Notes: generated by a model not told the origin, from the letters alone. DNA of 25,715 nucleotides from Candidatus Hodarchaeota archaeon (GCA_016840035.1 JAEOTC010000102.1:1-25715); one strand, 5' to 3'. Positions 461-25,715 are shown, counted from the first letter of the stretch. Program-made: numbers and translations.

Positions 461-488
461 GTGTCGTAAAATAACAGTTGGTAAGTGA
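461..488 (-). repeat. dif/Xer-like 11-6-11 site (candidate)
   Basis: Minus strand reads TCACTTACCAA-CTGTTA-TTTTACGACAC. It lies between convergent genes and shares arms with the sites at 6355, 9507, 10995 and 20076. Confidence 0.5.
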
Positions 489-553
489 AATTATGTCATT
501 TCTTAGTCTATACATAATCTCCAAGATCTTTTCTTTGGGAAAATGGATGATTT

Positions 554-940
554 TTAATCTATGATTAATGGAAATCGTTCTTTGTTTATTTTGATTACCT
601 TACTTATCCCCAACTGTTCACGAAAAAGAAGTCTTTTGGTCTCCAAACGAGATATGACTCTCGAAATAGTTCCTTTTGAAACATCGAATTTTTCTGCTAG
701 CGATTGTTGGTTCATACTTCCCTGTAAAAATAAGATTTCAAGAATTTTCATCTCTAATTCTGGCAAGATAGGATTCCACTTCGAATTAATAGTCTTCCAA
801 CGTCTGGAGAATATTTCATTTGCCGAATTTTCGGGATAAAGATCAAGATTATTCGGTATTTTGTTAATGGAATTAATTTTCTTTTGGATAATACCTGAAA
901 TTTCCTCTCTCTGATAGAATATAACTCCAGATACTATCAC
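554..940 (-). CDS. Truncated membrane-anchored winged-HTH regulator (paralog of the C-terminus of 1066..2460); possibly a pseudogene
   Basis: MarR-like wHTH (MNQQSLAEKFDVSKGTISRVISRLETKRL), 42/72 identical by hand alignment to the upstream gene's HTH. The frame extends to 976 as DQFIPLGLISFL, completing a TM helix, but is closed by TAA 977-979 and TAG 986-988. Confidence 0.7.
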   Translation of the reverse strand: MIVSGVIFYQREEISGIIQKKINSINKIPNNLDLYPENSANEIFSRRWKTINSKWNPILPELEMKILEILFLQGSMNQQSLAEKFDVSKGTISRVISRLETKRLLFREQLGISKVIKINKERFPLIID

Positions 941-1065
941 TAGAAATGAAATAAGTCCTAAGGGTATGAACTGATCTTACGAAACCTAGGACTCCTTTAA
1001 TGATTTGTAATCCGATTTATAGTTAATATCATCGAATGAATAGATAATGTTTCCAAAATTTTATG

Positions 1066-2460
1066 TCACTCTAAATGATCTCTCTTAAGCTTGATCATCT
1101 TCGAAATGCCCAATTTTCTCCTATTAACAAGGCGTTTAGTCTCAAGTCGAGAGATAATCCGAGAAACGGACATAGAAGTAAGCCCTAATTTCTCCGCTAA
1201 AGATTTTTGATTCATGATTCCTTCATTGTACAATATTTCAATGGCTTTTAACTCATTTTCGGAGAGAATTGTTTCCCATTTCGATTGAATCGATTCCCAA
1301 CGGAATACTCTCTCTTCTGAATTGTCACTAATGATAGATTCATCTTTATCTGACAAGAAGTTGTTTGAATTTTGAAATTTGTTTATTGAGTGCTTATATT
1401 TGGTAGTAAGACTCGTTAAACTATCTTTCTTGTAGAAAATGACTCCTAGGAGACCGATAAAGGTTATCAATACTAAGATTCCTAAGTATGGACCTAAAAG
1501 TTCTGGTGATTCAGTCTCTATTATTGTAACTGGGATAAGAATTTTTTTGATACTCCGTTGAACACCTATTGTCGATTCAAGATTTATTATAATTTCAATA
1601 TTTCCTACTATTTCAGGTTTCGCTTCTAAGTTAATTTCGAAATGGATACACACTTTTTTTGATGGTTCTAATCGAAAATAAGAGATATTAGCTGTGATCC
1701 ATGTAGGGAAGAAAATATTCCCTTCAATAGGAAATAGTTCCTCATTCACTACAGTTACATCACGTGTTTCTCCTCGTGTAGCATTCCAGGACTCAAAAAA
1801 GTCTAAATAATGATTAGAAGTCTTTCTTAAGTATAGTTGGGTTTGAAAGCTTTGAACATTTGTTTCTACCCAGAGTAACTCGAATATTCCTAAGTTTGTC
1901 GTAATACTTGGAAATGGCCTTAATCCTTGTGTGATGAGTGTAAAATCATCTTTAAACCTTATCACAACATGTTGTGAACCGACCATACACCCCCAATCAA
2001 CCCCTATTTCAAAACTATAGACATTGGATGTTTTAGTTATGAATTTTCCGCGATAAGAGCCTGAAATATTATAGAGAGTCCCCTCTGGGATTGTAAAGTT
2101 ATTTGATGAGAAAGAAATCATTGTATAAGTGTCTATTTCACTTTGATTCAAATCCATAACAGTATCTACAACTCTCAAAGTAAAATTCTCAATCGGGAAT
2201 CCAAAAATTTTAAACTGCCCAAATAATTCCCCTTTCGAAGTGAAATTATTACCAAGAACTTTAAGGTGAAAATTACAGTAATACTCCCCGAATGGATTGA
2301 TTATGTATGATAAAACTACTTGATTGATGTTCAACTCGGAATTAGAAGTAGATTCAGTAGAATGAATTGTTCCACAACAAGGTGCATTAATTTGTAAACC
2401 AAGAAAACAAGAACATAACAGTATTATTCCAATATAATACTTAGAATGTTTCATTTTCAT
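1066..2460 (-). CDS. Membrane-anchored transcriptional regulator: signal peptide, beta-rich ectodomain, 1 TM, cytoplasmic wHTH (COG2512-like)
   Basis: Hydrophobic N-terminus, TM PYLGILVLITFIGLLGVIFY followed by KK, and C-terminal LSENELKAIEIL...MNQKSLAEKLGLTSMSVSRIISRLETKRLV. An AGGAGGT RBS sits in the 16-bp gap after the upstream gene. Confidence 0.85.
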   Translation of the reverse strand: MKMKHSKYYIGIILLCSCFLGLQINAPCCGTIHSTESTSNSELNINQVVLSYIINPFGEYYCNFHLKVLGNNFTSKGELFGQFKIFGFPIENFTLRVVDTVMDLNQSEIDTYTMISFSSNNFTIPEGTLYNISGSYRGKFITKTSNVYSFEIGVDWGCMVGSQHVVIRFKDDFTLITQGLRPFPSITTNLGIFELLWVETNVQSFQTQLYLRKTSNHYLDFFESWNATRGETRDVTVVNEELFPIEGNIFFPTWITANISYFRLEPSKKVCIHFEINLEAKPEIVGNIEIIINLESTIGVQRSIKKILIPVTIIETESPELLGPYLGILVLITFIGLLGVIFYKKDSLTSLTTKYKHSINKFQNSNNFLSDKDESIISDNSEERVFRWESIQSKWETILSENELKAIEILYNEGIMNQKSLAEKLGLTSMSVSRIISRLETKRLVNRRKLGISKMIKLKRDHLE

Positions 2461-2476
2461 CCTTCACAACCTCCTT

Positions 2477-5113
2477 TTATGGCAGATCAGATTTATAGTT
2501 TTTTCCCCTCTTGAATACTTTTCTTCGTATCCCTAAGAAAAGTCCAACTAACAACACCATTGAAAATGTGGGAAAGGAGGAATGTGCAGATGTCGTTGTA
2601 CTGGTAGTTGTAATGGGATTTAGGATGGTGAAGACTTCATCTGAAATATCACTTACAGTAGTTCCATCATCAAAGGTAGCTACTACTTTTATAAGATAAA
2701 ATGACCCCGAAGGGAGTGTGGAAACATTCCACATAAATTCTGCGACTTCAAGATTCGCTACTAACATAATCCAGTTGGTACCTGAATCTACAGAATAATA
2801 AACTGTATATTTAACGGAAGATCCATGCGTATCATATGCTGGAAGCCAGTCGAGTGTGATCGATCCTTTGATTATTTCTCGCCCATTTGGTACAATAATT
2901 TGAGGTGGGATGAGAACCCGAAATGGTGAGTGTGGTGAAATTGCTAAGGGATAAGAATCTTGACTAATCTGTGGTGAAGTGTCTTCTGGATAGCCTTCAA
3001 TTGTATATGGTAAATCTATAATATTATCGTGATTATCATCTGGGCTAGTCCAATCTGACCAGTAATTGTAGTAAAATCGATTATCCATATCTGCATTATG
3101 TGTAAAGTCTTCAGCAGCCTGGGACTCTCTATCTGGGGCATCTAAATTATTATTCACAAAACTATTCAGAATGATCGTATTATTAGTAGATCCATAGCTA
3201 AACATTAAACCATAACCTCGATTTTCAGCTATGAAATTGTCCTTGATGATATTATTATGAGATCCGTCTAATAGGACTCCTTCCCAAGTATTATTGCTAA
3301 TGACATTACCTCCGATAACATTGCCTGAGGAATGAATGAAAATTATCCCGTAATAAGAATCTTTAATCTCATTGTTGGTAATATTATTATTGGAAGAGTG
3401 ATATAAATGAATTCCAGAGTAGTAATTGCTTATGTTTCTGATGTGATTATTGCTAATACTACAGTAAGTGGATGCTGATAAACTAATTCCGTGATATTTA
3501 CCTGTATTGACAGTATTGTTGGTAATACTAAGTCGTTGGCTAGAATGAATTACGATACTACAATCTACCTGATTGGAGATGGAGATCGTACTGCAATTAA
3601 CTAAGAAAATTTGTCCTGCTCCCATGGGAACGGTTTCATTGATCTTATTATACCAATAAAGAAGGGGTTTACCATTAATAGAATTATTTTTTACTTCTGC
3701 TTGTATATAAGATTCAATGGTAGCTCCTTTAATTAATAATTCACTTCTTAAGAGATTATCTTTAATAATATTAAGGGAGGAATCAATAAAATAAATACTA
3801 CTCAGATTATTTCTGAGAAGATTATTATTTGTAGAATTAGATAGTAAAATTCTCGCAATAGAATAAATTGAATCCACCAAAGTATTATGGGAAAGAGTGT
3901 TATTAAATGAAGAGCTTAATTTAATTCCACTATCTCCTGAATTTAGAAGAAGATTACGAGTTAAAAGGTTGTTTTGAGAAGAGCATAACCATATCCCCTG
4001 ATAAGCGTTGGGGAAAGTATTATTGACAAAGATATTGTCCTGAGAAGAATAAACCTGAATTGCATAAGGCATATATTCCCACCCCCATAACTCATAACCA
4101 CTGTAGGGTAGCTCAGGGTATCCTTCAAAATCTCCTTCATTGATAGTGTTGTTAATGAAGCGATTATTAGTGGAAAAACTAACTGTTGAATACTTTTCCA
4201 GAAGATTATTTCTCACATTATTATTATTTGAATATCTTAAATCAATACCCTTCATATTGTTGTTGCTAATATTGCAATTAGATGAATACCCCAAATAAAG
4301 ACGATAATCCAAAGTATTATTGAAGATTTCAATGTAATCACTAAAATGACAATATAATCTGTGTGTTAGATTAATGTCAACTAACTTGATTTGACTACAA
4401 TTAACGAGGATAAGTTGTCCTGCTTCTATAGAAATTGATTCATTAACCTGATTAGACCAGTATAGAATTGATTCCCCGTCGACAGAATTATTTATTACTT
4501 CTCTTTGAATATAGGAATCAAGATCGTCACCATTGAAATTTAATGCCCCATATTGTGGATCAGTGAATTTATTTCCTGTTATAATGTTATCAGCAGATTG
4601 GTAGAGGTCAATATAGCCACCCCTTCCACCATTTTCTGTGAAAATGTTATTGATAATAGTATTGTTGGGAGAATTACTCAAGGTTATTCCAAAGCAGCTA
4701 TTATTTGTAATATGATTCAAGGAAGAATTCCACAATCTAATCACCCCATAGTTATATGAATGTAAAATGTTCTGTATTATTTGACCATTCATTACGTCAG
4801 TAAAGTAGAGATACGTCAGTGAAGAATTGTATACTGAAAAGTAACAATCAACATGAGATATCCTTAATCCGTACAAATCAAGTCCTGATATCAGATAAGG
4901 ATTGAATTGCGATCCATTTCCAGACCATCCATTTGCTAAAGCTTGGGTAGCGAAGTCTTCAGTGCCATTAATTTTAATCCAGTCTAAAGTTATCGAATAT
5001 ATGCTAGAATTGGTTTCTAGAGGTTGAACTTCGGTTATATTATGATTGTTTAGTGTTGGAATAAGTGAAATTATCAAAAAGAGGACTAATAATAGGCTAT
5101 GTTGTTTTTTCAT
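2477..5113 (-). CDS. Surface protein: right-handed parallel beta-helix (NosD/CASH-like) repeats, Ig/FN3-like domain, Thr-rich linker, C-terminal TM and basic tail
   Basis: Signal peptide; many GIxLxxSxNNxIxxN repeats; YWSDWTSPDDNHDNIIDLPY cap; PNG...YSVDSGTNW...YLIKVVA Ig-like domain; tail TTTSTTTS...FPTFSMVLLVGLFLGIRRK. Confidence 0.88.
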   Translation of the reverse strand: MKKQHSLLLVLFLIISLIPTLNNHNITEVQPLETNSSIYSITLDWIKINGTEDFATQALANGWSGNGSQFNPYLISGLDLYGLRISHVDCYFSVYNSSLTYLYFTDVMNGQIIQNILHSYNYGVIRLWNSSLNHITNNSCFGITLSNSPNNTIINNIFTENGGRGGYIDLYQSADNIITGNKFTDPQYGALNFNGDDLDSYIQREVINNSVDGESILYWSNQVNESISIEAGQLILVNCSQIKLVDINLTHRLYCHFSDYIEIFNNTLDYRLYLGYSSNCNISNNNMKGIDLRYSNNNNVRNNLLEKYSTVSFSTNNRFINNTINEGDFEGYPELPYSGYELWGWEYMPYAIQVYSSQDNIFVNNTFPNAYQGIWLCSSQNNLLTRNLLLNSGDSGIKLSSSFNNTLSHNTLVDSIYSIARILLSNSTNNNLLRNNLSSIYFIDSSLNIIKDNLLRSELLIKGATIESYIQAEVKNNSINGKPLLYWYNKINETVPMGAGQIFLVNCSTISISNQVDCSIVIHSSQRLSITNNTVNTGKYHGISLSASTYCSISNNHIRNISNYYSGIHLYHSSNNNITNNEIKDSYYGIIFIHSSGNVIGGNVISNNTWEGVLLDGSHNNIIKDNFIAENRGYGLMFSYGSTNNTIILNSFVNNNLDAPDRESQAAEDFTHNADMDNRFYYNYWSDWTSPDDNHDNIIDLPYTIEGYPEDTSPQISQDSYPLAISPHSPFRVLIPPQIIVPNGREIIKGSITLDWLPAYDTHGSSVKYTVYYSVDSGTNWIMLVANLEVAEFMWNVSTLPSGSFYLIKVVATFDDGTTVSDISDEVFTILNPITTTSTTTSAHSSFPTFSMVLLVGLFLGIRRKVFKRGKNYKSDLP

Positions 5114-5178
5114 TTGATCAACTCAATTTTTATCAATATCTAGGTTCGATATTTCATGAGAAAACCTTCGGGATGTAG

Positions 5179-5269
5179 ATGTTGGTTATCCAGAGAATAA
5201 TACTTACATAAAATTCTATGTTTGCAGAAAAGTGTTACTAACTGTAATAACAAGTAATGTTGGTTATCC
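5179..5269. repeat. 13-bp perfect direct repeat ATGTTGGTTATCC (5179-5191, 5257-5269)
   Basis: Read directly. The reverse complement GGATAACCAACAT matches the 'CCAA' arm of the dispersed intergenic motif family. Confidence 0.75.
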
Positions 5270-5396
5270 CGATATAGAAATCTTTTCTGGAGGAGGAATT
5301 TTTAGTTGTCTTCAAACTGATGGGTAATCACAAATTTGTGTATGTTGTCATCAGTTAACTATATAGTCATTTATTGTTTAATTCGTCGTACTAAAA

Positions 5397-6230
5397 TTAT
5401 TCTGGAGGACCTCGTTCGATTCTCTTTTGAATTTCCTTCAAAGAATACCGTTCTGACCAGCAAGCCTCTAATAGCCAATTAACACCAATGTCCATGAAGT
5501 GATGGATATAAGCATCCTCCTCTTTGTTTCCAACGGTTACAATGCTTTTTACAACATCAAATGAGTCCAGTGATTTCCTATACTTTCTAATATAACTTAA
5601 AATTTCTTGATAATCTTGAGGATATAATGAGGGATCAGATCCAGCTTTCAATGGAAATATCCCATCATATTTCGCAGCCCGTCGAAATGGTTTTTTATTT
5701 GGCCAAGTACCTCCGACCCAGATCTTTATATTACCTTCTGGTTTAAATTTAATTGGATCTATTATTTTGAAGTGTTTTCCATCAAAAGTAAAGGGTTTTC
5801 CAGACCACAAACCTTTTAGAATCTCTAAAGATTCATCAAGTATATCCCCTCTAATCTTAGGGTTCTCCTCTTCACCTAGAGCTTTTAATTCTGCTGTAGA
5901 TCCCAAACCCACGCCAAGAATAAATCTTCCACTAGAAAGCTTATCTAGTGTAATAGCTTCTCTTGCTATTATCATTGGTCTTCTTCTTGCTAATGGTGTT
6001 ACTGTTGTACCAATAGTGATTTTATTTGTTTTTGTAGCTATTGCAGCCAATATAATCCATGGATCTAAGACATTATGATCTGTTGCCCACGGTAGAAAAA
6101 CGTGATCCCATAAAAAGAACCCATCCCATCCACATTCTTCCCCACTCTTAGCTAACTTGATGTAATCTTGTGGATTACTTGTAATGCCATGGTTAGCAAT
6201 ATATATGCCAAATTTTACCTTGCTAATCAA
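5397..6230 (-). CDS. LLM-class (luciferase-like) flavin/F420-dependent oxidoreductase
   Basis: GWDGFFLWDH, DPWIILAAIA, GTTVTPLARRRP, TLDKLSSGRFILGVGLG, IWVGG, C-terminal GPP. Start moved from 6287 to TTG 6230, which follows a GGTGAT RBS (6235-6240). Confidence 0.9.
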   Translation of the reverse strand: MISKVKFGIYIANHGITSNPQDYIKLAKSGEECGWDGFFLWDHVFLPWATDHNVLDPWIILAAIATKTNKITIGTTVTPLARRRPMIIAREAITLDKLSSGRFILGVGLGSTAELKALGEEENPKIRGDILDESLEILKGLWSGKPFTFDGKHFKIIDPIKFKPEGNIKIWVGGTWPNKKPFRRAAKYDGIFPLKAGSDPSLYPQDYQEILSYIRKYRKSLDSFDVVKSIVTVGNKEEDAYIHHFMDIGVNWLLEACWSERYSLKEIQKRIERGPPE

Positions 6231-6354
6231 AAGTATCACCAAAATTAATAATAATTCAGTCCTTAAAAACATATTTTTAGTGTCCATTCAAAGTAAGATA
6301 TTTGCTAAAGCCTCTCAGCATTGTTAAGCTGGAAATGTGGGATTTACTGCTTCA

Positions 6355-6382
6355 ATGTCGCAAAATTGATGTTTGAGGACAT
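6355..6382. repeat. dif/Xer-like 11-6-11 imperfect palindrome (candidate)
   Basis: ATGTCGCAAAA-TTGATG-TTTGAGGACAT, followed at 6391-6415 by a second family motif, AATGTCGCTTATCCAACGAACAGTT. Confidence 0.55.
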
Positions 6383-6498
6383 TTGAATGTAATGTCGCTT
6401 ATCCAACGAACAGTTCCGAAAATAAATTGATAAATAGGGGAGCAATATGCTAGGTCAAAAGGTTTAGTTGAAGAGGAAATAGGCTGTATAAGATAATT

Positions 6499-7650
6499 TT
6501 GGTGAAGAAATTGAATGATAAATTAGTTCAAGATCCGTTGTTCAAGATCTGGGAGAAAGCTTCTAGTACATGGAATTTTGCTAAGAAAGAAGTAATCCCA
6601 AATATTGAGGAGTTAACACCTGAAGGGTTAACACGAATCCTCAAAAAAAAGGGCTACATTAACAAAGGAAAAGTTTTAAAAATAATAAAGCGAGAATCAA
6701 GGGAAGGATTTCATTCAAACGTGCATTTTTTGGAGCTTTATTTTTCTAATGATATTCAAAAAGAAGTAATTTCATCTGAAATAGTTGTTAAGATACCTAA
6801 AACTGATGATTTAAGTAAACTTGCAGGAAAATACGAAGCGAGATTTTTTAAGGTTGTAACAGAAAAGAACAAAGAATTACCAGTTCCAACATGTTATGAT
6901 GTAGCATTTTCTAAAGAAACAGGGTACTCTCATGTTATACTTGAAAATTTATCTAAAACACATGAAGAGTTATCAGATTTGCCTGTTCCTCCTTTAAAAA
7001 AACATTGTGAAAGGGCAATTGAGAGTTTAGCAAAAATCCATGCATTCTGGTGGGATCGGGTTGATGATGATTATCGTATTAACAAAAAAGCTTTTTTTGA
7101 AGTGTATGAAATCAATGAACAAATTATGCATAACGTGCTAAATTTTATAGGAGAAAGAATGAGTAACACACGAAGAAATCTGTATAAAAAAGTTTATTCA
7201 TTATATCCTCAATTGCACTGGAAAAGAATTAGCACTAAAAAGAATTTAACTCTCGTACATGGTGATGCTGGCTTTTGGAATTTTTTCTATCCAAAAAACA
7301 TTGAGAATGAAAAAGAAAAAGCGTATTTAATTGATTGGCAATCATGGAGGCCCGATTTCGGAATGCATGATTTGGCCTACATGATAGGTCTTGAATGGTA
7401 TCCTGAACGAAGATTATTGATGGAAAAAATCCTAATAGAACATTATTATAATGTTCTAGTTGAACAAGGTGTAAAAAATTTCAGCTGGGATGAATGTTGG
7501 TATGACTACAAATTGGCGGCAATTAGAAATCTTTACATCCCAATAAACCAATGTGATATGAAAATTTCTGCATTGTGGTGGTGGCCTCATTTAGAAAGAG
7601 CGTGTCTCACATTTGAAGATTTAAATTGCATGGAGGTATTAGAAAATTAG
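6499..7650 (+). CDS. APH/choline kinase-like small-molecule phosphotransferase (EcKinase/DUF1679-like)
   Basis: VVKIP lysine, EARFF, VPTCY, LAKIHAFWW, Brenner motif LVHGDAGFWN, LIDWQ, DLAYMI. The start codon is uncertain. Confidence 0.88.
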   Translation: MVKKLNDKLVQDPLFKIWEKASSTWNFAKKEVIPNIEELTPEGLTRILKKKGYINKGKVLKIIKRESREGFHSNVHFLELYFSNDIQKEVISSEIVVKIPKTDDLSKLAGKYEARFFKVVTEKNKELPVPTCYDVAFSKETGYSHVILENLSKTHEELSDLPVPPLKKHCERAIESLAKIHAFWWDRVDDDYRINKKAFFEVYEINEQIMHNVLNFIGERMSNTRRNLYKKVYSLYPQLHWKRISTKKNLTLVHGDAGFWNFFYPKNIENEKEKAYLIDWQSWRPDFGMHDLAYMIGLEWYPERRLLMEKILIEHYYNVLVEQGVKNFSWDECWYDYKLAAIRNLYIPINQCDMKISALWWWPHLERACLTFEDLNCMEVLEN

Positions 7651-7692
7651 AGCTTATGATTAATTATGACACCCCTAGTCTTTCATCTTTTT

Positions 7693-7714
7693 ATATAACA
7701 GATGTGCAATAACC
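7693..7714 (+). repeat. 22-bp perfect direct repeat, copy 1 (ATATAACAGATGTGCAATAACC)
   Basis: Identical to 9498-9519. Confidence 0.9.
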
Positions 7715-7854
7715 AACGATATGTAATTTGAAAGAGAGTAATTGGCTTTAGTCAAAATGAAATTGTTTTTACTAGAAATTAATAAGCTTTCCAATAGGAA
7801 TGTCACAGTAAAAATCATAAATCAGCAAATTATAACTGTTCATTTATTCAACTA

Positions 7855-8220
7855 TCAAATGCAATCCCATCGAACCATAATTTGATGAGTTTCTACAATC
7901 ACTACTTTATTAACGACATCCTCAAGTTTATACTTATTTAAAAACTCTTTAAACAAGTCTAAAAAAACTTTTTTGCCTTGAGTCTCTGGTTTTAAGAGAA
8001 TTATTCCGTAAAATGTTCCTCTTGGATGTAGAATGTCATTACTAAAGTCATTATCTAAAGTGATTAGAATTCGTTCTTCTCTTTCGCATAACTGAAGTAA
8101 ATCTTTATCTTCAATACCCATTTTTCCTTCGTGATATACACTGTCAACTTTATGATTTCCCATTGACTCTAGAACTTTTTTAACTGAAAAAGGAGAATTT
8201 TAATCTATTTTAAACTTCAT
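7855..8220 (-). pseudogene. DUF5615 PIN-like toxin (VapC45-like) with an in-frame stop at codon 7
   Basis: ATG 8220 follows a GAGGGG RBS and reads MKFKID*NSPFSVKKVLESMGNHKV..D.DLL..C..EERILITLDNDF. TAA 8200-8202 replaces the Glu of the family's D-E-N motif. Confidence 0.85.
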
Positions 8221-8229
8221 TGATTTCCC

Positions 8230-8469
8230 TCAACTTTCCATTGTTAAGGGAATGACTTCTCCTCTGGCTAAAGAAGCTCCATACATTAGTGCGACATTCA
8301 CATCCCCTTTCTTAAGCGAAGGATACTCTTTGAGTATTTCTTCTTCCCCCATTCCTTCTGCTACACAATCAAGAATAACAGAGACCATGACTCGGGTTCC
8401 TTTGATACAAACTTTACCATGACAAATATTGATGTTTGAAGATATTTGTTCTTTCCATTCTAAAGCCAT
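8230..8469 (-). CDS. DUF433 family antitoxin (VapB45-like)
   Basis: ISSNINICHGKVCIKGTRVMVSVIL...GM.EEEILKEYPSL...DV..AL.Y, directly upstream of the PIN gene. ATG 8469 is preferred over TTG 8475. Confidence 0.92.
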   Translation of the reverse strand: MALEWKEQISSNINICHGKVCIKGTRVMVSVILDCVAEGMGEEEILKEYPSLKKGDVNVALMYGASLARGEVIPLTMES

Positions 8470-8789
8470 TTTCAAACCTTCGATCGACTTATTTGAGTGC
8501 TTATTTTATTAGAAGTTAAATTTTTCAATTTTATTAAGCCTTTCCTTTTTTGACATGGTTTGTTATTAATTTTTATGTAATGCAAGCTATTGTTTGTAAA
8601 ATTATATCTCAGAAAATTTACAAAATATACGGAGGTTCGTATGTAATACCAACGATAAGTGTTTCCAAAAAATTTCGATTTAGTAATAATTTTTCATGTT
8701 CCTTGACAAAATCTACACTACCAGAAAGACTGGTTACTTCTTTTTCAAGGATTTGTACGTAAACTGTAATAGTTTCATAGCAGACTGAA

Positions 8790-9455
8790 TTAGATTGTGA
8801 CTGGATTAAATCCAATGGTAATCAACCATATTCCGAATACAATTTCCTGTAAAGCTATGGGGATATTCAAACCCAGATAAAGTGGTGTTTTGATTGTCGT
8901 AAGATTCAACATTAATGAAAAACTAGCCAATAAAGACAATAGAGCACCAATAAAACCCCAAATAGATAACCATTGAGGGATTAACTGATATTGAAAAAGA
9001 ATAAAATAAAACAGGAGACCACCGATATTTAAAGCCAGTATCATAACCACATGATTCATAAAATCACGACCAGTTCGTAACAAATTCCCTAGAGTTTCAG
9101 CATGTACTGGGTCTAAAGAATCTGAGCTTGAAAAATCCTGGCTTAGAGCCAATAACAAAAATGCTAGCACAATTGCTAAAATGTTAAATATACCTGCAAT
9201 AATGCGAAAACTAACAAAGCCCAGAGATAATTCTTCATTATAGTTATTTAAAGTAGGGAATAGTAAAACAGCTATACCCACATAAGCAAATGCAAGGACA
9301 AATTGTGAGAGTACTCCAAAAATAACTTTCCGCTGATTTTCATAAATCTTACTGAGAAAATTGGGATCATCTATTGCTGGTATAATACTAAGGATGCCGG
9401 CAATAAAAACTACTAAATATAATATTCCAGCAATAACAATCGAATTCATTTCCAA
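8790..9455 (-). CDS. DUF4386-like multi-pass membrane protein
   Basis: IAGILYLVVFIAGILS, GIAVLLFP.L..YN..LSLGFVSFR, LIPQWLSIWGFIG, PIALQEIVFGIWLI.IGF; about 6 TM segments. Confidence 0.8.
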   Translation of the reverse strand: MEMNSIVIAGILYLVVFIAGILSIIPAIDDPNFLSKIYENQRKVIFGVLSQFVLAFAYVGIAVLLFPTLNNYNEELSLGFVSFRIIAGIFNILAIVLAFLLLALSQDFSSSDSLDPVHAETLGNLLRTGRDFMNHVVMILALNIGGLLFYFILFQYQLIPQWLSIWGFIGALLSLLASFSLMLNLTTIKTPLYLGLNIPIALQEIVFGIWLITIGFNPVTI

Positions 9456-9497
9456 TTGCTCTCAAGCTTTAGATGTTAAAAAGCATTACTAGATACA

Positions 9498-9534
9498 ATA
9501 TAACAGATGTGCAATAACCGATATTACACGACAA
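9498..9534 (+). repeat. 22-bp direct repeat, copy 2, running into a dif/Xer-like site
   Basis: 9498-9519 is identical to 7693-7714. 9507-9534 reads ATGTGCAATAA-CCGATA-TTACACGACAA (TAA-N6-TTA core). Confidence 0.8.
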
Positions 9535-9565
9535 ATTCAAGTAATTGGGAAACAAAAATTTCTCG

Positions 9566-9589
9566 AAAGCCAGCTTTGAAAATTATAAT
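9566..9589 (+). repeat. 24-bp imperfect direct repeat, copy 1
   Basis: AAAGCCAGCTTTGAAAATTATAAT versus AAAGCTAGCTTTAACAATTATAAT at 10983-11006 (21/24 identical). Confidence 0.8.
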
Positions 9590-9624
9590 AATAGTTAGGT
9601 GCCGTTTTTCAACGATATAAATTC

Positions 9625-9846
9625 CTATTTTTTGTTCCCTGCTCTATGTAAATCTTCAGTAAACTCAAGAAATTCAAACGCAATTTTTAATCTTCGTTCT
9701 GGAGAGATTTTTCTTGCAGATTCTCCTTCTTGTCTTAAATCCTTCAGACGATCTTTTTTGAATGAAAATATTGCCTTTAGCTCCTTATAATTTGACTGCT
9801 CTGAGCATTCAATGCCCAGATTTTATATTTCTGATAGTAGATACAT
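9625..9846 (-). pseudogene. Small interrupted ORF, antitoxin-like remnant (absent from the ORF track)
   Basis: MYLLSEI*NLGIECSEQSNYKELKAIFSFKKDRLKDLRQEGESARKISPERRLKIAFEFLEFTEDLHRAGNKK*, with TAA at 9823-9825. The SPERRLKIAFEF segment resembles small proteins that precede nucleotidyltransferases; this is from recall only. Confidence 0.35.
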
Positions 9847-10030
9847 TCACTTTTCTGTATATGAACGTATTTGGGAGACTACCATATATTCATAATTTCT
9901 GCAGAAATTCTCATTATTTGGATTTTATCAATAAGATTAGAAATCTTCTTTTTGCATAAATCATAGGATTTCGTGGAAACAATTTTAATCTCATAATTGT
10001 GTGAATTGCAGAATCATGAGTTGAAAAGAA

Positions 10031-10960
10031 ATGAAAAGAACTATTGGGATAATGTTTATAATAATAATCACTTTTCTTTGTCAGAATCTAGTAGTGGACA
10101 AATCAACGGGAATCGATCTACCCCAAAATCCAATCATATTCGTTACTGGATTGGGAGGAACAGGAGAAAATTGGAATGGTGTGTTGGATATGTTTAAAAC
10201 TGATGGATGGCCTAATAGTTCTCTCTTTGCGTACGATTTTGCTGATAATTTAGACTGTTCTGATCAAGGGAATATAAATAATGCTAATCAGATAGCGGGT
10301 TGGGTTACAAATATACTGAGCATTACAGGATCGAATAAAGTTGATATGATTGCTTATAGCATGGGAGGGATAAGTAGTCGTTACTATATGAAGTTTCTTA
10401 ATGGAACTCATTTCGTCGATGATTATGTAAGCATAGCTAGTCCACAACATGGATCGTTGGGAACTGCTTCATGTGATTTCTATTTTGACAAGCCTAATGT
10501 ATTAATTAAAATGTTGAATGAGGGAGATGAAACACCAGGTGGTATTCTAGACGATACTGTGGGAGATCGATATGATGGTATATTGAATATCACATACAAT
10601 GGTACTCATGAACCTGGAAATGTCAATTATACAACGATTTATAGTCCAGATGACAATATCGTTTTCCCTTTTAATACCTCTAAGCTTAATGGAGCTATAA
10701 ACATCTCTTTAGATGGATATTTACATGGACAAATTGACCAAGCAATGTATCGATATATCAGAGAAGCAGTGTATGACTGGAATGATAACATGACTACTAC
10801 AACTACAACATTTCTTTCTTCCACAACAACAAAAACTACACCTACCTCCTCTACTACAACTTCAACCCAAGATAGTACTCCATCTTCATCACCTGGACTT
10901 AATTCCATTGTTCTACTATTCGTTTTGTGTATGATAACTATTTTACGTAAGAAGAAGTAG
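10031..10960 (+). CDS. Surface-anchored lipase/esterase (Lipase_2/EstA-like alpha/beta hydrolase)
   Basis: Signal peptide; PIIFVTGLGG; nucleophile elbow KVDMIAYSMGG; IASPQHG; YTTIYSPDDNIV (Asp); YLHGQI (His); Thr-rich linker, SPGL, TM, RKKK. Confidence 0.9.
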   Translation: MKRTIGIMFIIIITFLCQNLVVDKSTGIDLPQNPIIFVTGLGGTGENWNGVLDMFKTDGWPNSSLFAYDFADNLDCSDQGNINNANQIAGWVTNILSITGSNKVDMIAYSMGGISSRYYMKFLNGTHFVDDYVSIASPQHGSLGTASCDFYFDKPNVLIKMLNEGDETPGGILDDTVGDRYDGILNITYNGTHEPGNVNYTTIYSPDDNIVFPFNTSKLNGAINISLDGYLHGQIDQAMYRYIREAVYDWNDNMTTTTTTFLSSTTTKTTPTSSTTTSTQDSTPSSSPGLNSIVLLFVLCMITILRKKK

Positions 10961-10982
10961 TATGAGGAAGAACTACTCTCTC

Positions 10983-11022
10983 AAAGCTAGCTTTAACAAT
11001 TATAATCGGCGTTTGAAGACAT
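10983..11022 (+). repeat. 24-bp repeat, copy 2, running into a dif/Xer-like site
   Basis: AAAGCTAGCTTT is a perfect palindrome. 10995-11022 reads AACAATTATAA-TCGGCG-TTTGAAGACAT. Confidence 0.7.
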
Positions 11023-11070
11023 TCAAATAGAAATGTCTTGAAGATAGATAATTCACAGTTTTCTGGTACT

Positions 11071-13131: not shown

Positions 13132-13172
13132 AGTGTTAAGTTATACGTAAAATTTGATAAGGATGGATTTAA

Positions 13173-14987: not shown

Positions 14988-15014
14988 CTTTACCTACATC
15001 TAAACGTCATTTTC

Positions 15015-15383: not shown

Positions 15384-15402
15384 AAAAATATTTCTCCTTA
15401 AG

Positions 15403-15456
15403 GAGTCTACCAACAGAGTTTTAATGTCTAGCTTACCATCAGATTTTGGTTTTCAG
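15403..15456 (+). repeat. Two overlapping degenerate copies of the intergenic 11-6-11 motif
   Basis: GAGTCTACCAA-CAGAGT-TTTAATGTCTA (15403-15430) and TAGCTTACCAT-CAGATT-TTGGTTTTCAG (15429-15456). Confidence 0.4.
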
Positions 15457-15531
15457 TCACTCGAATAGCTATTATAACAGCGTTATTCTTCCCAATTGAC
15501 CTCTTAGTAATTATTCACCGGAGATAATCAT

Positions 15532-19971: not shown

Positions 19972-19974
19972 TTC

Positions 19975-20022
19975 GGGAAAGATGGGAATCCCTGCTAGGT
20001 TACTTCTAGCTCTTTCCCCATC
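19975..20022. terminator. Stem-loop between convergent genes (possible terminator or 3' stabiliser)
   Basis: GGGAAAGA 19975-19982 pairs with TCTTTCCC 20011-20018, enclosing GCTAG/CTAGC. It begins 4 bp after the stop codon. Confidence 0.4.
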
Positions 20023-20075: not shown

Positions 20076-20103
20076 GAAACTTCCAATAGAGTTTTTAAGG
20101 CAT
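20076..20103 (+). repeat. dif/Xer-like 11-6-11 site (candidate)
   Basis: GAAACTTCCAA-TAGAGT-TTTTAAGGCAT. The right arm is 9/11 identical to 11012-11022. It lies between convergent genes and abuts the TrmB stop codon. Confidence 0.5.
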
Positions 20104-20903: not shown

Positions 20904-20924
20904 TACCTCAAAAAGTTTCTACTT

Positions 20925-20959
20925 GCTACTATTAGTACTTAGTAGCTAACGTTTATATA
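20925..20959. promoter_or_regulatory. TrmB-type operator and bidirectional TATA in a divergent promoter
   Basis: TACT-ATT-AGTA (20927-20937) lies inside the inverted repeat GCTACTA-N8-TAGTAGC (20925-20946). TTTATATA at 20952-20959 reads TATATAAA on the minus strand. Confidence 0.65.
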
Positions 20960-21000
20960 GATTTTCCTGTCTATAATTATCCTGATAATGAGATTTCGGG

Positions 21001-21600
21001 ATGATTCGAATGAAAAAACGAGAAATTTTTAATAAATTGTTTGAAAATGGAATTTCTTACCAAAATTATGTTAATAGAAGTGTTAACTATCAAGAAAAAA
21101 TGGAAGCTAATTATACTGCAGCACAAAAAGCAGCTCAAAAGTTATCAAGGGATCAAATTAATCAAATGAATCAAAAATTACATGTCCTGTGTATTGCGGA
21201 AAATTGGTGTATTGATTGTGCAAATGGAGTTCCCATTATAGCTGTAATTGCAAATCTAATGACAAATTGGGATTTTCGGATTATATCTCGAGATGAGTGG
21301 AAAGAAGGTTTCGATGCATTCTACACTACTGCTGGAAGGAGAAAAATTCCAGTTATTATATTTGCAGATGACGATGGAGATGAGATTATGAGGTGGATTG
21401 AAAGACCAACAAGAAGTTACCAGCTTCTAGGAAAATTAAAGGAACAAAAGTTATCAAAAGAGGAATTTATCCAAAAATACACTGACACGCTTGAATTTCA
21501 ACCTCCCTTTGTTTCTGAAGAGATTATTTCGGAGTTATTTTTTGCAGCAGAAAAAGCTGCATCAATTGTACGCGCTAATCCCACATCAAAAAAGAAGTAA
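21001..21600 (+). CDS. Thioredoxin family protein (Thioredoxin_9-like)
   Basis: LCIAENWCIDCANGVP active site, RIISRD, G.RKIPVIIF, WIERP. Confidence 0.9.
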   Translation: MIRMKKREIFNKLFENGISYQNYVNRSVNYQEKMEANYTAAQKAAQKLSRDQINQMNQKLHVLCIAENWCIDCANGVPIIAVIANLMTNWDFRIISRDEWKEGFDAFYTTAGRRKIPVIIFADDDGDEIMRWIERPTRSYQLLGKLKEQKLSKEEFIQKYTDTLEFQPPFVSEEIISELFFAAEKAASIVRANPTSKKK

Positions 21601-21704
21601 AATACAATTAATAAATTACACTCGGTTTTTCAAATAGCTGAATGTTTTTTTAAGGAGAAAAATCTCAAACATATAATTCAAGACAATTCCAATTTGGGTT
21701 TATT

Positions 21705-22184
21705 ATGGACAAACCGAGAACGTTTGATGAGATTCTAACAAGCGCATATAAACGGATGCATCGATACACTTGTGCAGAAGCCTCACTCCAAGCATTGCTA
21801 GAATTATGGGATTTACCGACTGAACCCCTATCTTGGGCATCTGCTGGTTACTTAGGGGCTATTGGATCGGGTTTCACTACATGTGGTCTAATAATAGGGA
21901 GTTCCATTGCAATTGGTCATAAGTGTGGTTATCTACTTCAGGGAATACCAGAAGAGAATGAGGAAGCTAGGGAAAAGGCAATCCAATTGGTCAATGAGCT
22001 TTATACGGATTTTTATTCTAAGTTTGAGAGTACTGATTGTAAATCTCTGAATACGGTCGATTTTCGTCAAGGGGAAGAAATTACCGATTGGATGATTCAA
22101 AAGGGATGGAAACAGACCTGTGACGTTTTTTTAGACTTTACTATAAGGAAATGCAACTCAATGGCGGAAGAAGGAAGAATCTAG
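21705..22184 (+). CDS. C_GCAxxG_C_C family putative redox-active protein
   Basis: YTCAEA, GAIG...TCGLIIG, F..KFESTDCKSL and a final QTC, matching the family's four-Cys spacing. Confidence 0.8.
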   Translation: MDKPRTFDEILTSAYKRMHRYTCAEASLQALLELWDLPTEPLSWASAGYLGAIGSGFTTCGLIIGSSIAIGHKCGYLLQGIPEENEEAREKAIQLVNELYTDFYSKFESTDCKSLNTVDFRQGEEITDWMIQKGWKQTCDVFLDFTIRKCNSMAEEGRI

Positions 22185-22214
22185 CTTTTCTTTGCAGAAT
22201 TCTGAATTAAATTT

Positions 22215-23627
22215 TTAAGTAAAATGACTAAAAAAAGTTAAAAAGTAGTACAAAGATAATTGACTAGACAATCCGCTTATAAGTCCATCAAACGAATGAT
22301 TAGCCCAGGGAATTTCCAGATACATGTACTCATTGTGGGTAGAATTTAATGCGTGTTGAAGATCCCGGGAATTCCTCACAGATACCAGCGCATCTAGCGA
22401 CCCTGCTGCAATAAACGTTGGTACCATGCCTGATCTATTAATATAACTTACAGGTGACGCTAAATCATATAGAAATGAATCTTCATTCGAGGTCACACCT
22501 AAAATCCGAGAAGACATTTGAGATATCTTACTAATACCATAGATAGATGCGACTCCCCTAACCTTAAGTTCAGAGTAGGTATAATTTCCACAATTCTCAT
22601 TGAAATATGTCACATTTGTCCCGTAAGCAGCCACTAACGATAGTTGAGCTCCAGAGGATCGACCAAATAGAAAAATATTATCCTTATCTCCAGAATAGTG
22701 CTCAGCATTCTCTTTAGCAAACACGATGGCATCACGAACGTCATGAAGCATTCCAGTAAATCTTACCTCAGGATATAATCTATAATTTATTGCAAATACG
22801 GTAAATCCATGAAAAGCAAAGAATTGTGATACACTCTTAATTGGAATATCACTTTTCGATCCGCTAATCCATCCTCCTCCATGAATAACAATTAGAATTG
22901 GATTGGGATTATTCTCATTTGGTATATAGTATACATCAAGACTACTGAAATTGTTGTATTGAATGTTTTTTTGGATCCTAAGTATCGAGGAATCGTAGGA
23001 GTAACCATTCAGATAAACATTGAGAGAAAAAGGTGTTTGTAAGGGAACTAGATCAGAATTAGTATTGAATTCCAAAAACTCTTCTGAAGATACATGTGGA
23101 CGAATTGAAGTAACTTGGAAATAGGGGTAAATAATGATGACAAATAGTATTAACGTCGAAAGAAAGCTAACCTGATGAATTTTGGATAATTTCTGTATTT
23201 CACCAGTAGTAAATTTCTGAAAACTTATCCTTAGGCCGATGTAAATTATAATAACCGTCAATTTTACTCCGATCCAGAAATTGAACTCCTTTAACCAGTA
23301 AGCTGAAAAGGAGAAACCTAAAATATAAAAGATCCATGAACCGAGAATTAGAAAACCTATCATTGTCTTCCAATCTCGAATCATTCGAGTCAGGAAGGTA
23401 TTAGACACATCAGACTTATCATTCTTGTAGAAAAGATAAATATGATAAATGATAACAAGACTTAAAATTAACAGGAATGAATATTGGTACATTTGAATCC
23501 CAAAGATCACGATGATACTCTCGAGAATGTACCGAAGAATCACAGGGAGAATTACAAACGCTAAGAGAAGAGCTAGAAGTACTAGTAACCATTTTATTCC
23601 TCTAACAAGGAATTTACTCTTTTTCAT
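22215..23627 (-). CDS. Membrane-bound HSL-family (BD-FAE-like) esterase/lipase
   Basis: About 5 N-terminal TM segments; IHGGGW, INYRL, GRSSG nucleophile, GSLDALV (Asp), ANHSFD (His). Confidence 0.9.
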   Translation of the reverse strand: MKKSKFLVRGIKWLLVLLALLLAFVILPVILRYILESIIVIFGIQMYQYSFLLILSLVIIYHIYLFYKNDKSDVSNTFLTRMIRDWKTMIGFLILGSWIFYILGFSFSAYWLKEFNFWIGVKLTVIIIYIGLRISFQKFTTGEIQKLSKIHQVSFLSTLILFVIIIYPYFQVTSIRPHVSSEEFLEFNTNSDLVPLQTPFSLNVYLNGYSYDSSILRIQKNIQYNNFSSLDVYYIPNENNPNPILIVIHGGGWISGSKSDIPIKSVSQFFAFHGFTVFAINYRLYPEVRFTGMLHDVRDAIVFAKENAEHYSGDKDNIFLFGRSSGAQLSLVAAYGTNVTYFNENCGNYTYSELKVRGVASIYGISKISQMSSRILGVTSNEDSFLYDLASPVSYINRSGMVPTFIAAGSLDALVSVRNSRDLQHALNSTHNEYMYLEIPWANHSFDGLISGLSSQLSLYYFLTFFSHFT

Positions 23628-23640
23628 TTTGTATCGATTT

Positions 23641-23665
23641 AATGTCTTTTATCCATCAAACATTT
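23641..23665 (+). repeat. Dispersed intergenic repeat
   Basis: AATGTCTTTTATCCATCAAACATTT is 20/25 identical to 6391-6415 and fills most of a 41-bp intergenic gap. Confidence 0.65.
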
Positions 23666-23668
23666 CTC

Positions 23669-25426
23669 TTATTTTTTCCTAAAACGCTTTTTTTGCCTTC
23701 TAGTTATGAAAGTAACTCCAATTAAAAAGAAAATACCACTAGATGGGGCACTAGATGGTTCAGTAGTTGTTGAGAGGGTAAGAGTGGTAGTTGTTGTTGT
23801 TGTTGTATCTGGTAATTCTGAGGTTATGGTAAACGGACTATCCGAAATTATCTCAGTTTCTAATCCATCTGTAGAACAAACTTTCACCTTCAATAAATAG
23901 TTGCCTTCTGGATATGAACTAATATCCCAGGTATAAGACGTATCCAGTAAGCTAGAAGAAATTTCAGTCCATTCGACTGCAGAAACAATTTTTGTATGAA
24001 CGTTATACGATAAAACACGTTTTAATGGGTTTGCTGACGGAGTCCATTCTATAGTAACAACTCCTGTTACTTCTTGACCACTAGAGGGATATAAAATACT
24101 AATAGGTGCTAATGTTCCGGTACTGTATACTAATGGTCTTGAATCCTCATTTACAGAGTTCCCCAAAAAGCTGTAGGGTTGATCCACGATGCCATCATTG
24201 TTTGAATCCGGGGAAGTGTAATCAGACCAATAGTTATAACTAACATTGTTTTCTTCAAATGTATTATCAAAATCTGTTACTTGTGAATTGCCTGTAGGAT
24301 TGTTATTGATGAATTCATTTCTGAATATCTGATTATTTGATGAGACTTCAAGTATCAACCCGAAAGCGGTAGAATTTTTAATTAAATTGTCATAATACAT
24401 TGCTGAATCTGCGTTCCAACTGTGAATTCCGTCGTGGTTATTCAAAAGTATGTTATGAGATATAATCGAATTATTCACGATATTTCTTGCATGTATACCT
24501 ATTTCATTTCCTATCAATGTATTGTACGAAACATTAGTATTCCAGCTAAACAATAATAAAATCCCATAATAATCATCTTGAACCTCATTCCATTCAACAA
24601 CTGAATGATTTGAGTACCGTATAGTTATTCCCTGTGTACCAGCACCATAGATTTTATTATGCAATACTGTTGCATTGGGAGAGTTAGTAGAGGCAAGAGA
24701 ATGAGCAACCATATTCCTGATGACAGTGTTATTCAAGAGCGAACTGTGAGGTGATCCATCCGCAAGTTCTATTGCTGCATAATAACTTTCAAACACATAA
24801 TTATTTGCGACATATGCATAAGGTGATCCATAAACATACATTCCATAACCAGTCGAGAGACTAGTTCCTGCATGAATAACTCGGTTATATGTTATTTTTG
24901 ACCTTCGGGAACTATGAAGCGTTATTCCGTCTTGGTACGAATTTTCAACCGTATTATTCTTAATCATGGCATAGGGGGAAGATTCTAACCATATTCCTTC
25001 GGATCCACTGTTAATTACAGTTGTATTCACGATTTGGCCATACGTGACATTGGAAAAGTGTATACCATCAGCTCCTCCATCGAGGTAACAACCTGTGATT
25101 CGGAAGTGTAAATTTGTATTACGAATCGTGATTCTATTCCCAGAGGTACCTGAAATATTTAGATTTTGTATTAACAGTGGATGTGTAATGTTCCCTAACA
25201 AAAAAACATCCCCACTAGCATTTACAAAGTCGATTAACTCTTGATTTCCATTTATTAATAATGGAGGAGTATCAATTAAACTTATCGAAGAACTGATATT
25301 ATGGCTTCTATGTTGCGTACCAGCATTCAATATCCTAATAGATGACCCTAAGAACACTAAAAGTGTAATAAATACCAGAAAGAATACTAGCTTTTTCTTG
25401 TCATTATTTCTTTTGTCCTTTCTCAT
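23669..25426 (-). CDS. Surface protein: parallel beta-helix (NosD-like), Ig/FN3-like domain, Thr-rich linker, C-terminal anchor; paralog of 2477..5113
   Basis: Signal peptide; GIxLxxSxxxxIxNN repeats; NYWSDYTSPDSNNDGIVDQPY; YTWDISSYPEGNYLLKV; tail TTTTTTTT...SGIFFLIGVTFITRRQKKRFRKK. Confidence 0.88.
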   Translation of the reverse strand: MRKDKRNNDKKKLVFFLVFITLLVFLGSSIRILNAGTQHRSHNISSSISLIDTPPLLINGNQELIDFVNASGDVFLLGNITHPLLIQNLNISGTSGNRITIRNTNLHFRITGCYLDGGADGIHFSNVTYGQIVNTTVINSGSEGIWLESSPYAMIKNNTVENSYQDGITLHSSRRSKITYNRVIHAGTSLSTGYGMYVYGSPYAYVANNYVFESYYAAIELADGSPHSSLLNNTVIRNMVAHSLASTNSPNATVLHNKIYGAGTQGITIRYSNHSVVEWNEVQDDYYGILLLFSWNTNVSYNTLIGNEIGIHARNIVNNSIISHNILLNNHDGIHSWNADSAMYYDNLIKNSTAFGLILEVSSNNQIFRNEFINNNPTGNSQVTDFDNTFEENNVSYNYWSDYTSPDSNNDGIVDQPYSFLGNSVNEDSRPLVYSTGTLAPISILYPSSGQEVTGVVTIEWTPSANPLKRVLSYNVHTKIVSAVEWTEISSSLLDTSYTWDISSYPEGNYLLKVKVCSTDGLETEIISDSPFTITSELPDTTTTTTTTLTLSTTTEPSSAPSSGIFFLIGVTFITRRQKKRFRKK

Positions 25427-25715
25427 CTCTTTTCTTCCTGAAAAATTTGATTAGTGCTTCTTTAGGGATAAGTTCCTATTTAAAGTTAGAGTTCCGAATA
25501 AAAGTTTCTTTGTTTTTTGTAGTACTCAGTTTCATTCAATAATTGGTTTTACTTTATTCTAGTAATTCAATTCTGATTGAGATAGATCATAAGACTTGGT
25601 TGTGGAGAAGATTCTTGGGAAAGTCCATAGAATCTAAATTGGGCATCTAGAAAAGTATTCAAAAATGATATTTGCCAACGACTTTTCTTTGAATTTAATG
25701 TAGCATTAATAGATA

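Follow-up and report, generated by a model that had tools for sequence, protein, structure and literature searches.

Putative Xer/dif-type joints between small gene packets in a Hodarchaeota contig

The contig JAEOTC010000102.1 of a Candidatus Hodarchaeota archaeon (assembly GCA_016840035.1), analysed over its full length of 25,715 bases and called the window here, carries in its left part a row of small gene packets separated by related 28-base sites, in which two 11-base arms surround a 6-base spacer. The stretch from 461 to ~11060 is probably (at a rough probability of 0.62) a chromosomal array of such packets, joined by Xer/dif-type sites and worked by the tyrosine recombinase XerA. The original prediction, made from the sequence of the window, had extended a recombinational cassette system of this kind from 461 to 25686; this extent had to be cut back to ~461-11060, as no supported site lies past 11.1 kb.

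The window is the entire contig C47 (25.7 kb) of an assembly of 4.3 Mb in 293 contigs, 87% complete and with 36% G+C. This genome is labelled G000; G, C and L labels denote genomes, contigs and fetched loci, respectively.

Site geometry and exchange points

The 11-6-11 layout is real. Twenty-two genomes of the genus were scanned for palindromes, defined as inverted arms ATGTCGTCAAA / TTTGACGACAT with at most three mismatches, these consensus arms being mutual reverse complements. With a 6-base spacer, such palindromes occur 75 times, in 19 of the 22 genomes, against three times with 5 bases, twice with 7 bases and four times for the reversed control. The same spacing stands out in G000 without the window, where seven sites with at least 9/11 matches in both arms have a 6-base spacer and none or one is found at each other spacer from 0 to 20. 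Individual genomes of the genus hold 0-7 palindromic sites (2-7 in most), plus dozens of hybrid sites. The geometry read by eye from the window is thus borne out by a genus-wide peak.

When relatives were searched with the window by blastn, matches of 30-55 bases and 90-100% identity turned up at many places in many genomes. Their centres are 7688-7722, 8624-8661 and 10983-11023, while 462-532 and 6356-6396 gave single matches. Alignment of the copies from other genomes gave site families that all fit one 11-6-11 frame. Type A consists of a 10-base lead, the left arm ATGTGCAATAA and the spacer CCAACG. In type C, the left part differs, is 25 bases long and closes with an arm of its own, and the same CCAACG spacer follows. 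Type D has an 18-base block with AAAGCTAGCTTT, the left arm AACAATTATAA, a spacer varying at its four inner bases and the right arm TTTGA(A/C)GACAT; its left block is present in 66 copies in 17 of the 22 genomes, against one for the reversed control. The palindromic type has, on its left, the reverse complement of the type D right arm; type F combines a canonical-like left arm with a right arm of its own. Types A, C, D and F retain only one canonical-like arm. Intermediate left arms connect type A to the canonical arm, and the right arms of A and C sites hold a weak canonical signal, in the 6-base register only. The description first given of the motif, with one conserved arm, a partner arm ending in ..TATAA and variable spacers, was correct.

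That the whole pattern was picked by eye from chance resemblances in AT-rich intergenic DNA is scarcely credible. Chance does account for two of the proposed copies, at 20076 and 21659, and probably for those at 14039, 15429 and 25668, and the motif skeleton is barely above shuffled sequence. The expected enrichment of this invariant skeleton (AA-N7-T-N4-G-N-C) was seen in intergenic DNA, with 12 occurrences against 6.4 +/- 2.5 in shuffles, and failed over the whole window (42 against 52); the test is also circular, the motif being derived from the same sites that it scores. When the genus consensus arms were scored in the window with a match of at least 13/22, 44 positions were found at a spacer of 6 and 28-46 at other spacers. 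Neither test can separate real from chance sites, so that outside evidence is needed. Site models built from copies in other genomes only, without any window copy, and run on the window with nhmmer, matched 7691-7721 (E 3e-9), 8625-8657 (3e-10), 9498-9519 (9e-5), 9561-9596 (3e-3) and 10983-11023 (2e-12), all on the plus strand, and the window gave no match outside these five. Together with the genus spacing test and the mapping of breaks described below, these models rule out chance for the supported sites.

Exchange points can be located by comparing loci that share only one side of a site. The window segment 8645-9518, with the DUF4386 gene, is 92% identical to positions 4471-3597 of contig C55 in the same assembly; C55 could represent a second locus or a co-assembled strain. 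The left end of this packet shows unrelated left arms, followed by a spacer and further sequence common to both; at its right end, the two agree up to the first spacer base, A-type left arm included, and then diverge. For a broader comparison, ~200 site regions were fetched from 20 genomes of the genus, and all site contexts were compared, anchored on the spacer and with the break free to fall anywhere within 217 bases. Among 18 non-redundant pairs sharing the left flank, 16 lose homology at site positions 0-23, none elsewhere, and two show no break; an even spread of breaks would predict ~2 of 18 pairs in these positions. Where the outside arms differ, the break is sharp and falls at 0-2 (the edge between left arm and spacer) or at 5-6 (the edge between spacer and right arm). 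Examples are G010 3927.7 kb versus G012:C7, G008:C47 versus G012:C27, G006:C212 versus G012:C36, G010 4304.8 kb versus G012:C36, and G028:C100 versus G029:C337. Breaks at 11-18 are upper bounds, inflated by the family-level similarity of right arms.

Arms are also found in new pairings. One left module is common to five D sites with five different spacers and right sides, and a full site and a D site have the right arm and 210 bases of flank in common, this arm and flank being preceded by a canonical left arm in one case and by a D left arm in the other. A pair of exchange points separated by six bases is what a tyrosine recombinase leaves behind, and a common stretch as short as 6-8 bases at the break is too little for homologous recombination. 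Comparative mapping thus places strand exchange at both spacer edges, where the breaks between related genomes, which the prediction had named as a check, do cluster.

These observations bear on a reading in which the conserved blocks are non-autonomous repeats, resembling miniature inverted-repeat transposable elements (MITEs) or repetitive extragenic palindromic (REP) sequences, and the packets are shuffled by homologous recombination between them. The blocks are indeed short (30-45 bases), 90-100% identical and set amid unrelated flanks, contigs often end at them, and their edges are sometimes out of register with the packet homology. Such repeats are nevertheless unlikely to be the explanation: the breaks fall inside the blocks, at arm/spacer edges and between partners sharing down to 6-8 bases, the strict 6-base spacing of inverted arms would be left unexplained, and no terminal inverted repeats or target duplications were noticed in the alignments, although no systematic search for them was made. 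Many copies are found on short contigs or at contig ends; in G000 (contigs C38, C55, C82, C176, C228 and C231), they lie no more than a few hundred bases from contig ends and on contigs 3-8 kb in length. Sites at contig ends imply that these repeats break assembly, so that site counts in metagenome-assembled genomes (MAGs) are underestimates. In practical terms, these sites interrupt assemblies and flag where Hodarchaeum genomes vary.

The sites lie between gene units regardless of gene direction, as had been claimed. A count of A, C and D copies over G000 and the fetched loci placed 55 of 56 between genes, with neighbours in either direction and at no preferred distance; for the D type, the upstream neighbour has the same orientation in 12 cases and the opposite one in 13. 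This freedom of orientation and distance argues against promoters, operators and terminators, and upholds the doubt already raised about an operator role, given the copies in convergent gaps. A promoter or terminator role of the A and D blocks was rejected for want of an orientation rule. Within arrays, sites are co-oriented, as seen in the window, G011, G012, G005 and G008.

The palindromes could still bind protein without recombining, either as operators of a dimeric regulator or as chromosome-organising sites bound by XerA, and coincide with packet boundaries as both are intergenic. A half-site at the xerA promoter and the resemblance of the D block to a TATA-box promoter fit this, as do euryarchaeal dif regions that coincide with chromosome domain boundaries and bacterial XerD, which unloads SMC at dif-like sites (PMC11840125). 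It is, however, quite improbable as a full account, since sites occupy convergent-gene gaps with no fixed orientation or distance to genes, breaks concentrate at spacer edges and not anywhere in the gaps, and arms are re-paired between sites.

In the proposed array, each packet of one to three genes would be joined to the next by two 11-base arms around a 6-base spacer, most joints pairing one consensus arm with a family-specific arm (A, C, D or F) and one large group having the CCAACG spacer. A tyrosine recombinase would cut at both spacer edges and exchange strands; a packet would then travel with half-sites at its ends, and the arms would be re-paired at each joint. Packets are likewise presumed to be excised as circles, and the system may still be active.

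Packets and sites along the window

The window encodes genes of accessory type (assignments from Pfam): a DinB-like, two MarR-like and two NosD/beta-helix genes, a luciferase-like monooxygenase, an EcKL/APH kinase, a DUF5615/DUF433 toxin-antitoxin-like pair and a DUF4386 gene. It also encodes lipase and esterase genes, three genes of no known family, a 1479-residue FG-GAP protein, a TrmB-thioredoxin pair and a C_GCAxxG protein. DNA searches with the window in 20 relatives found no synteny longer than one or two genes. All seven 28-base copies called clear in the original prediction are present where it placed them. Five of these (461, 6355, 9507, 9578 and 10995) belong to site families found throughout the genus, and those at 20076 and 21659 do not. 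The features are collected in Table 1.

Table 1. Sites, putative packets and look-alikes in the window (aa, amino acids; ORF, open reading frame; arm scores are matches to the consensus)
Position	Feature	Strand	Description
461..488	Site, F type	+	Canonical-like left arm 9/11, 6-base spacer, family-specific right arm; conserved block 462-532
478..5316	Putative packet	genes all -	MarR-like 128 aa, MarR-like 464 aa, NosD/beta-helix 878 aa (Pfam)
5169..5196	Candidate site, weak	- (opposite orientation)	CCAACA core, exact ATAACCAACA; predicted near 5165
5247..5274	Candidate site, weak	- (opposite orientation)	CCAACA core; predicted near 5243
5306..5333	Half-site	+	Left arm 9/11, right arm unrecognisable; alone not significant
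5323..6365	Putative packet	gene -	Luciferase-like monooxygenase gene 5397-6287 (Pfam)
6355..6382	Full palindromic 11-6-11 site		Arms 9/11 and 10/11, total 19/22
6392..6419	Second site, 9 bases after the 6355 site	+	Canonical-like left arm 7/11, CCAACG spacer
6409..7712	Putative packet	gene +	EcKL/APH-type kinase gene 6499-7650 (Pfam); between two CCAACG-spacer sites
7702..7729	Site, A type	+	Left arm ATGTGCAATAA, spacer CCAACG, right arm not conserved; conserved block 7691-7721
7719..8648	Putative packet	genes -	Toxin-antitoxin-like pair DUF5615 + DUF433 (Pfam)
8638..8665	Site, C type	+	Own left arm, then CCAACG spacer; conserved block 8625-8657
8649..9518	Packet, mapped at both ends	gene -	DUF4386 gene 8790-9455; from spacer of 8638 site to first spacer base of 9507 site
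9507..9534	Site	+	A-type left arm, variant spacer, right arm 8/11
	Gene-less unit, ~65 bases		Starts with right arm of 9507 site; also in G010, G012, G008
9578..9605	Site, D type, decayed right arm	+	Conserved left block from 9561; pattern match with 2 mismatches
9595..11005	Putative packet	lipase gene +	Two short ORFs and class-2 lipase-like gene 10031-10960 (Pfam)
10995..11022	Site, D type	+	Left arm AACAATTATAA, variable spacer, canonical right arm 10/11
20076..20103	Not in system, chance look-alike	+	13/22, no family match, no copies elsewhere
21659..21686	Not in system, chance look-alike	+	13/22, no family match, no copies elsewhere

The 461 site separates the DinB-like gene from the MarR/NosD packet; its conserved block is 82-88% identical in G012:C16, G004:C45 and G002:C41, where the window's genes are absent nearby. 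On G003:C165, homologues of the NosD gene and of the 464-residue MarR-like gene are flanked by two dif-like sites (L041, 1937 and 6738), and the homology with the window stops near 5241-5245, a few bases outside the candidate site 5247-5274. Most of the weaker copies that had also been listed are probably chance look-alikes; 5306 (one arm 9/11) and the two near 5165 and 5243 (an exact A-type core on the minus strand) are weak but plausible. Shuffles contain the 10-mer ATAACCAACA, at most one mismatch allowed, 4.2 +/- 1.8 times, and the window contains it 11 times. The 5306 half-site is intergenic, with the NosD packet on one side and the luciferase-like gene on the other. This last gene is 87% identical in G011, where the flanks are unrelated and no site is recognisable, and 96% identical in G012, where the match ends at the contig end.

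The palindrome at 6355-6382 is among six full palindromes of its own genome, and the site with its edge has copies amid other genes in G010 (~902.9 kb) and G001:C3. The site at 6392-6419 was overlooked in the prediction, as was the one at 8638-8665; the 30 bases that follow the former are similar to the starts of other packets. The kinase packet, 6409-7712, has no DNA match among the 20 relatives searched. The copy proposed at about 7700, between convergent genes, corresponds to the A-type site at 7702, which has many copies throughout the genus with 91-100% identity and is matched by the window-free models at E 3e-9. The toxin-antitoxin packet is 89% identical to a stretch near a contig end of G011, ~3 kb from the nearest array site there. 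Type C, represented at 8638, has ten copies in G011, G012 and G010, co-oriented within each array. Positions 9603-9908 are 92% identical to G002:C41, where the common stretch terminates at a dif-like site.

At 10995, the left arm is preceded by the conserved 18-base block containing AAAGCTAGCTTT. This perfect 12-base palindrome lies at 10983-10994 and is degraded in the copy at 9566-9577. Plasmid Xer sites such as cer and psi carry accessory sequences, and by analogy AAAGCTAGCTTT could bind an accessory protein. A 'double site' (right arm, 9-10 bases, left arm), suggested by 6372-6402 and 11012-11042, was rejected as an anecdote, as outward-facing arms show no spacing peak.

To the right of the array, 11124-14009 holds three neighbouring genes that match nothing in Pfam or the defence library. 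Four paralogues of the first (159 aa), with ~50% identity, lie on contigs C10, C159, C284 and C48, and relatives of the second (513 aa) adjoin the one on C48. A defence-system search with the window's unknown genes and the giant gene gave no matches. A second copy of 14100-15409, 19776-20019, 20102-21596 and 23651-25715, with 84-94% identity, lies at 36238-41434 of contig C188, which may be a paralogous locus or a co-assembled strain. It is without 15410-19775 (most of the 1479-residue FG-GAP gene) and ~21600-23650 (the C_GCAxxG and BD-FAE esterase genes). The left break of these two insertions relative to C188 abuts CCAACA at 15410, and the other ends have no recognisable site.

Several of the copies proposed in this right part did not hold. 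The one at 15403 is merely the CCAACA abutting the C188 breakpoint. Those at 14039, 15429 and 25668 have no repeat or model match, 25650-25715 matching only the C188 look-alike region, and they are probably chance similarities. Contig C188 keeps both flanks of 20076 with the site absent, and no family copies lie beside the TrmB-thioredoxin pair in seven relatives. For 21659, the C_GCAxxG homologues of G002 and G012 have nothing similar upstream.

The candidate enzyme and the weight of evidence

A genome search found two tyrosine recombinases in G000. One is a XerA of 297 residues, encoded on the minus strand of contig C174 (10000-10890), which agrees with the prediction of a tyrosine recombinase encoded elsewhere and is a candidate by association. 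It scores 272.5 bits against the archaeal XerA model NF040815 (cut-off 220) and 164 bits against Pfam PF00589, with a SAM-like N-domain; its best solved relative is Pyrococcus abyssi XerA (4A8E), and the R, K, HxxR, H and Y motifs can be read by eye in its translation. In a pattern-limited scan of species genomes (L089-L100), the nearest matches of the Xer protein outside its own group were bacterial XerC/D-like proteins with 36-43% identity, not archaeal XerA.

XerA was found in 19 of the 22 genus genomes. A consensus arm with at least 9/11 matches lies within ~60 bases upstream of xerA in all 17 genomes with a readable region. Two placements occur: one clade has the arm beside the start codon, and the other has it inverted and ~50 bases upstream. 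The DNA around it has diverged, so that the arm looks selected. In G000, the xerA start codon is preceded, at a distance of 7 bases, by an 11-base arm that fits the consensus perfectly (C174 10891-10908). The position of the arm suggests XerA autoregulation. A dif-like element upstream of xerA has also been described in haloarchaea (PMC11840125). Taken together, the association points to the cell's own XerA of contig C174 as most likely the enzyme.

It is rather unlikely, by comparison, that the recombination sites are real and the enzyme is not XerA, the work being done in trans by the integrase of a mobile element or by a recombinase missing from the incomplete genomes. The genomes searched have one to three tyrosine recombinases each, with one or two beyond XerA in G000 and in four of the five others. 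Most sites are asymmetric, as suits dedicated integrases, and the 87% completeness of G000 leaves room for a missing gene. Two loci, G010 738.0-741.5 kb (L072) and G012:C27 (L073), place a non-Xer tyrosine recombinase at 3-4 kb from D- and A-type sites, and in the G010 locus a NosD/beta-helix gene stands between the recombinase and the sites. These extra recombinases are, however, not conserved (25% identity between G000 and G010), and none is found near the sites in G000:C244 or G011:C1, while the consensus arm is tied to xerA in every readable genome. A dedicated integrase was rejected on these grounds, the second recombinases being unrelated between genomes and absent near sites elsewhere. 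No integron integrase exceeds the cut-off: the best match to TIGR02249 (cut-off 265) is XerA itself, with 89 bits, although absence is not proven in a genome of this completeness.

Several points weigh against a XerA-worked array. At packet ends, the NosD-MarR homology falls ~60 bases short of the 5306 half-site, the toxin-antitoxin homology spans only 7840-8553, which leaves 70-120 bases to the sites, and 9908, the end of the packet in common with G002, carries no site in the window. DUF4386 is the only window packet mapped at both ends, and the 18 pairs compared are partly redundant and were judged to represent ~10-12 independent joints. Many sites have one recognisable arm only, and spacers differ between sites; classical Xer recombination handles both situations poorly. 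Single arms are not over-represented in G000, and three of its seven best palindromes lie within long open frames. The xerA-upstream arm could be the target of some DNA-binding protein other than XerA. Activity is putative, with no circles and no presence/absence variants for the window. Finally, the real dif was not identified among the sites, and the only site conserved across species is intragenic.

This last site is a near-perfect palindrome with the spacer CAAGAC, found in G000 at C114 48872-48899 and at orthologous places in G002, G010 and G028. It was considered as the chromosomal dif, its spacer being the sole one conserved across species, and rejected because a conserved protein-coding gene contains it, with the reading V-V-K-Q-D-F-D-D. 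Coding coincidence is one explanation, and tolerance of a site within a gene the other.

A more far-reaching version of the proposal, to which slightly less than even odds are given, is that Hodarchaeum has an integron-like cassette system running on its housekeeping XerA. Packets with dif-derived half-sites would be excised as circles and reinserted at compatible joints, spacer classes such as CCAACG acting as compatibility groups.

Comparison with known gene-exchange systems

Asgard gene flow bears on gene acquisition by the archaeal ancestor of eukaryotes. To our knowledge, the only Asgard gene-exchange systems described are attC integrons, viruses and a few transposon-like elements. If the proposal is true, modular gene exchange would have a second, independent route, one that uses the cell's own chromosome-resolving enzyme. 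This would be a gene-capture system native to archaeal relatives of eukaryotes, needing neither attC nor IntI, and the idea of dif modules would extend from Acinetobacter plasmids to archaeal chromosomes. It is testable with one protein and a 28-base site, the exchange points being predicted to the base. Literature searches found no paper on dif-type cassette joints or XerA-linked cassettes in archaea, and none pairing 'Hodarchaeales' with 'gene cassettes'; integrons, cassettes and recombinases go unmentioned in Wu et al. 2022 (PMC8813620).

Archaeal XerA and dif serve chromosome-dimer resolution (Cortez et al. 2010, PMC2958812), and a dif site is known in Thermococcus kodakarensis (PMC11840125). 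The sites described here share with this system the 11-base inverted arms, the 6-base spacer and the AA-N6-TT inner signature, and likewise the XerA-family gene is distant from the sites. They differ in number, with several palindromic and dozens of hybrid sites where the known system has one dif, and in location, at variable gene junctions and not at a single conserved terminus locus.

Integrative mobile elements exploiting Xer (IMEX), such as the CTX and TLC phages of Vibrio, use the host Xer and are single self-contained elements inserting at dif. As in IMEX, the host Xer would be used here by DNA with a dif-like site, one arm of which is degenerate. Unlike IMEX, the window holds an array of many joints and no element genes.

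Chromosomal integron arrays with attC sites and clusters of attC sites lacking integron integrases (CALINs) include cases reported from Asgard MAGs (Ghaly et al. 2022, PMC9668308). Like these, the present arrays have co-oriented sites between packets of one to three genes of unrelated function, sites that are homogeneous per lineage, and the same packets beside other neighbours. In contrast to integrons, the sites here are double-stranded 11-6-11 dyads with no IntI above cut-off, and the packets are not uniformly oriented, some being multi-gene. With an imperfect hairpin of 55-140 bases as the attC criterion, single-strand folding of eight site regions gave z-scores of -0.87 to +0.80 versus shuffles, that is, no attC-type hairpins. 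An integron was, therefore, rejected, on the missing attC fold and the missing IntI above cut-off.

A close parallel, as the prediction had noted, is found in the Xer-dependent dif (pdif) modules of Acinetobacter plasmids and chromosomes, which use the host XerC/XerD (PMC6449649, PMC13141974, PMC12907356). Both systems have 28-base 11-6-11 sites of a type derived from the host dif, with small accessory and toxin-antitoxin modules between them and no recombinase carried. In both, spacers vary and modules recur in new contexts; here, packets bounded by two dif-like sites are found in different contexts for DUF4386 (window versus C55), NosD-MarR (G003) and the genus pairs. The differences concern the enzyme, one Xer (XerA) here and a XerC/XerD pair there; the layout, with asymmetric sites co-oriented as in an integron array here and alternating pdif sites there; and the setting, an Asgard archaeal chromosome. 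Many of the present sites, moreover, unlike pdif sites, combine a canonical arm with a conserved non-canonical arm and an extension of 18-25 bases.

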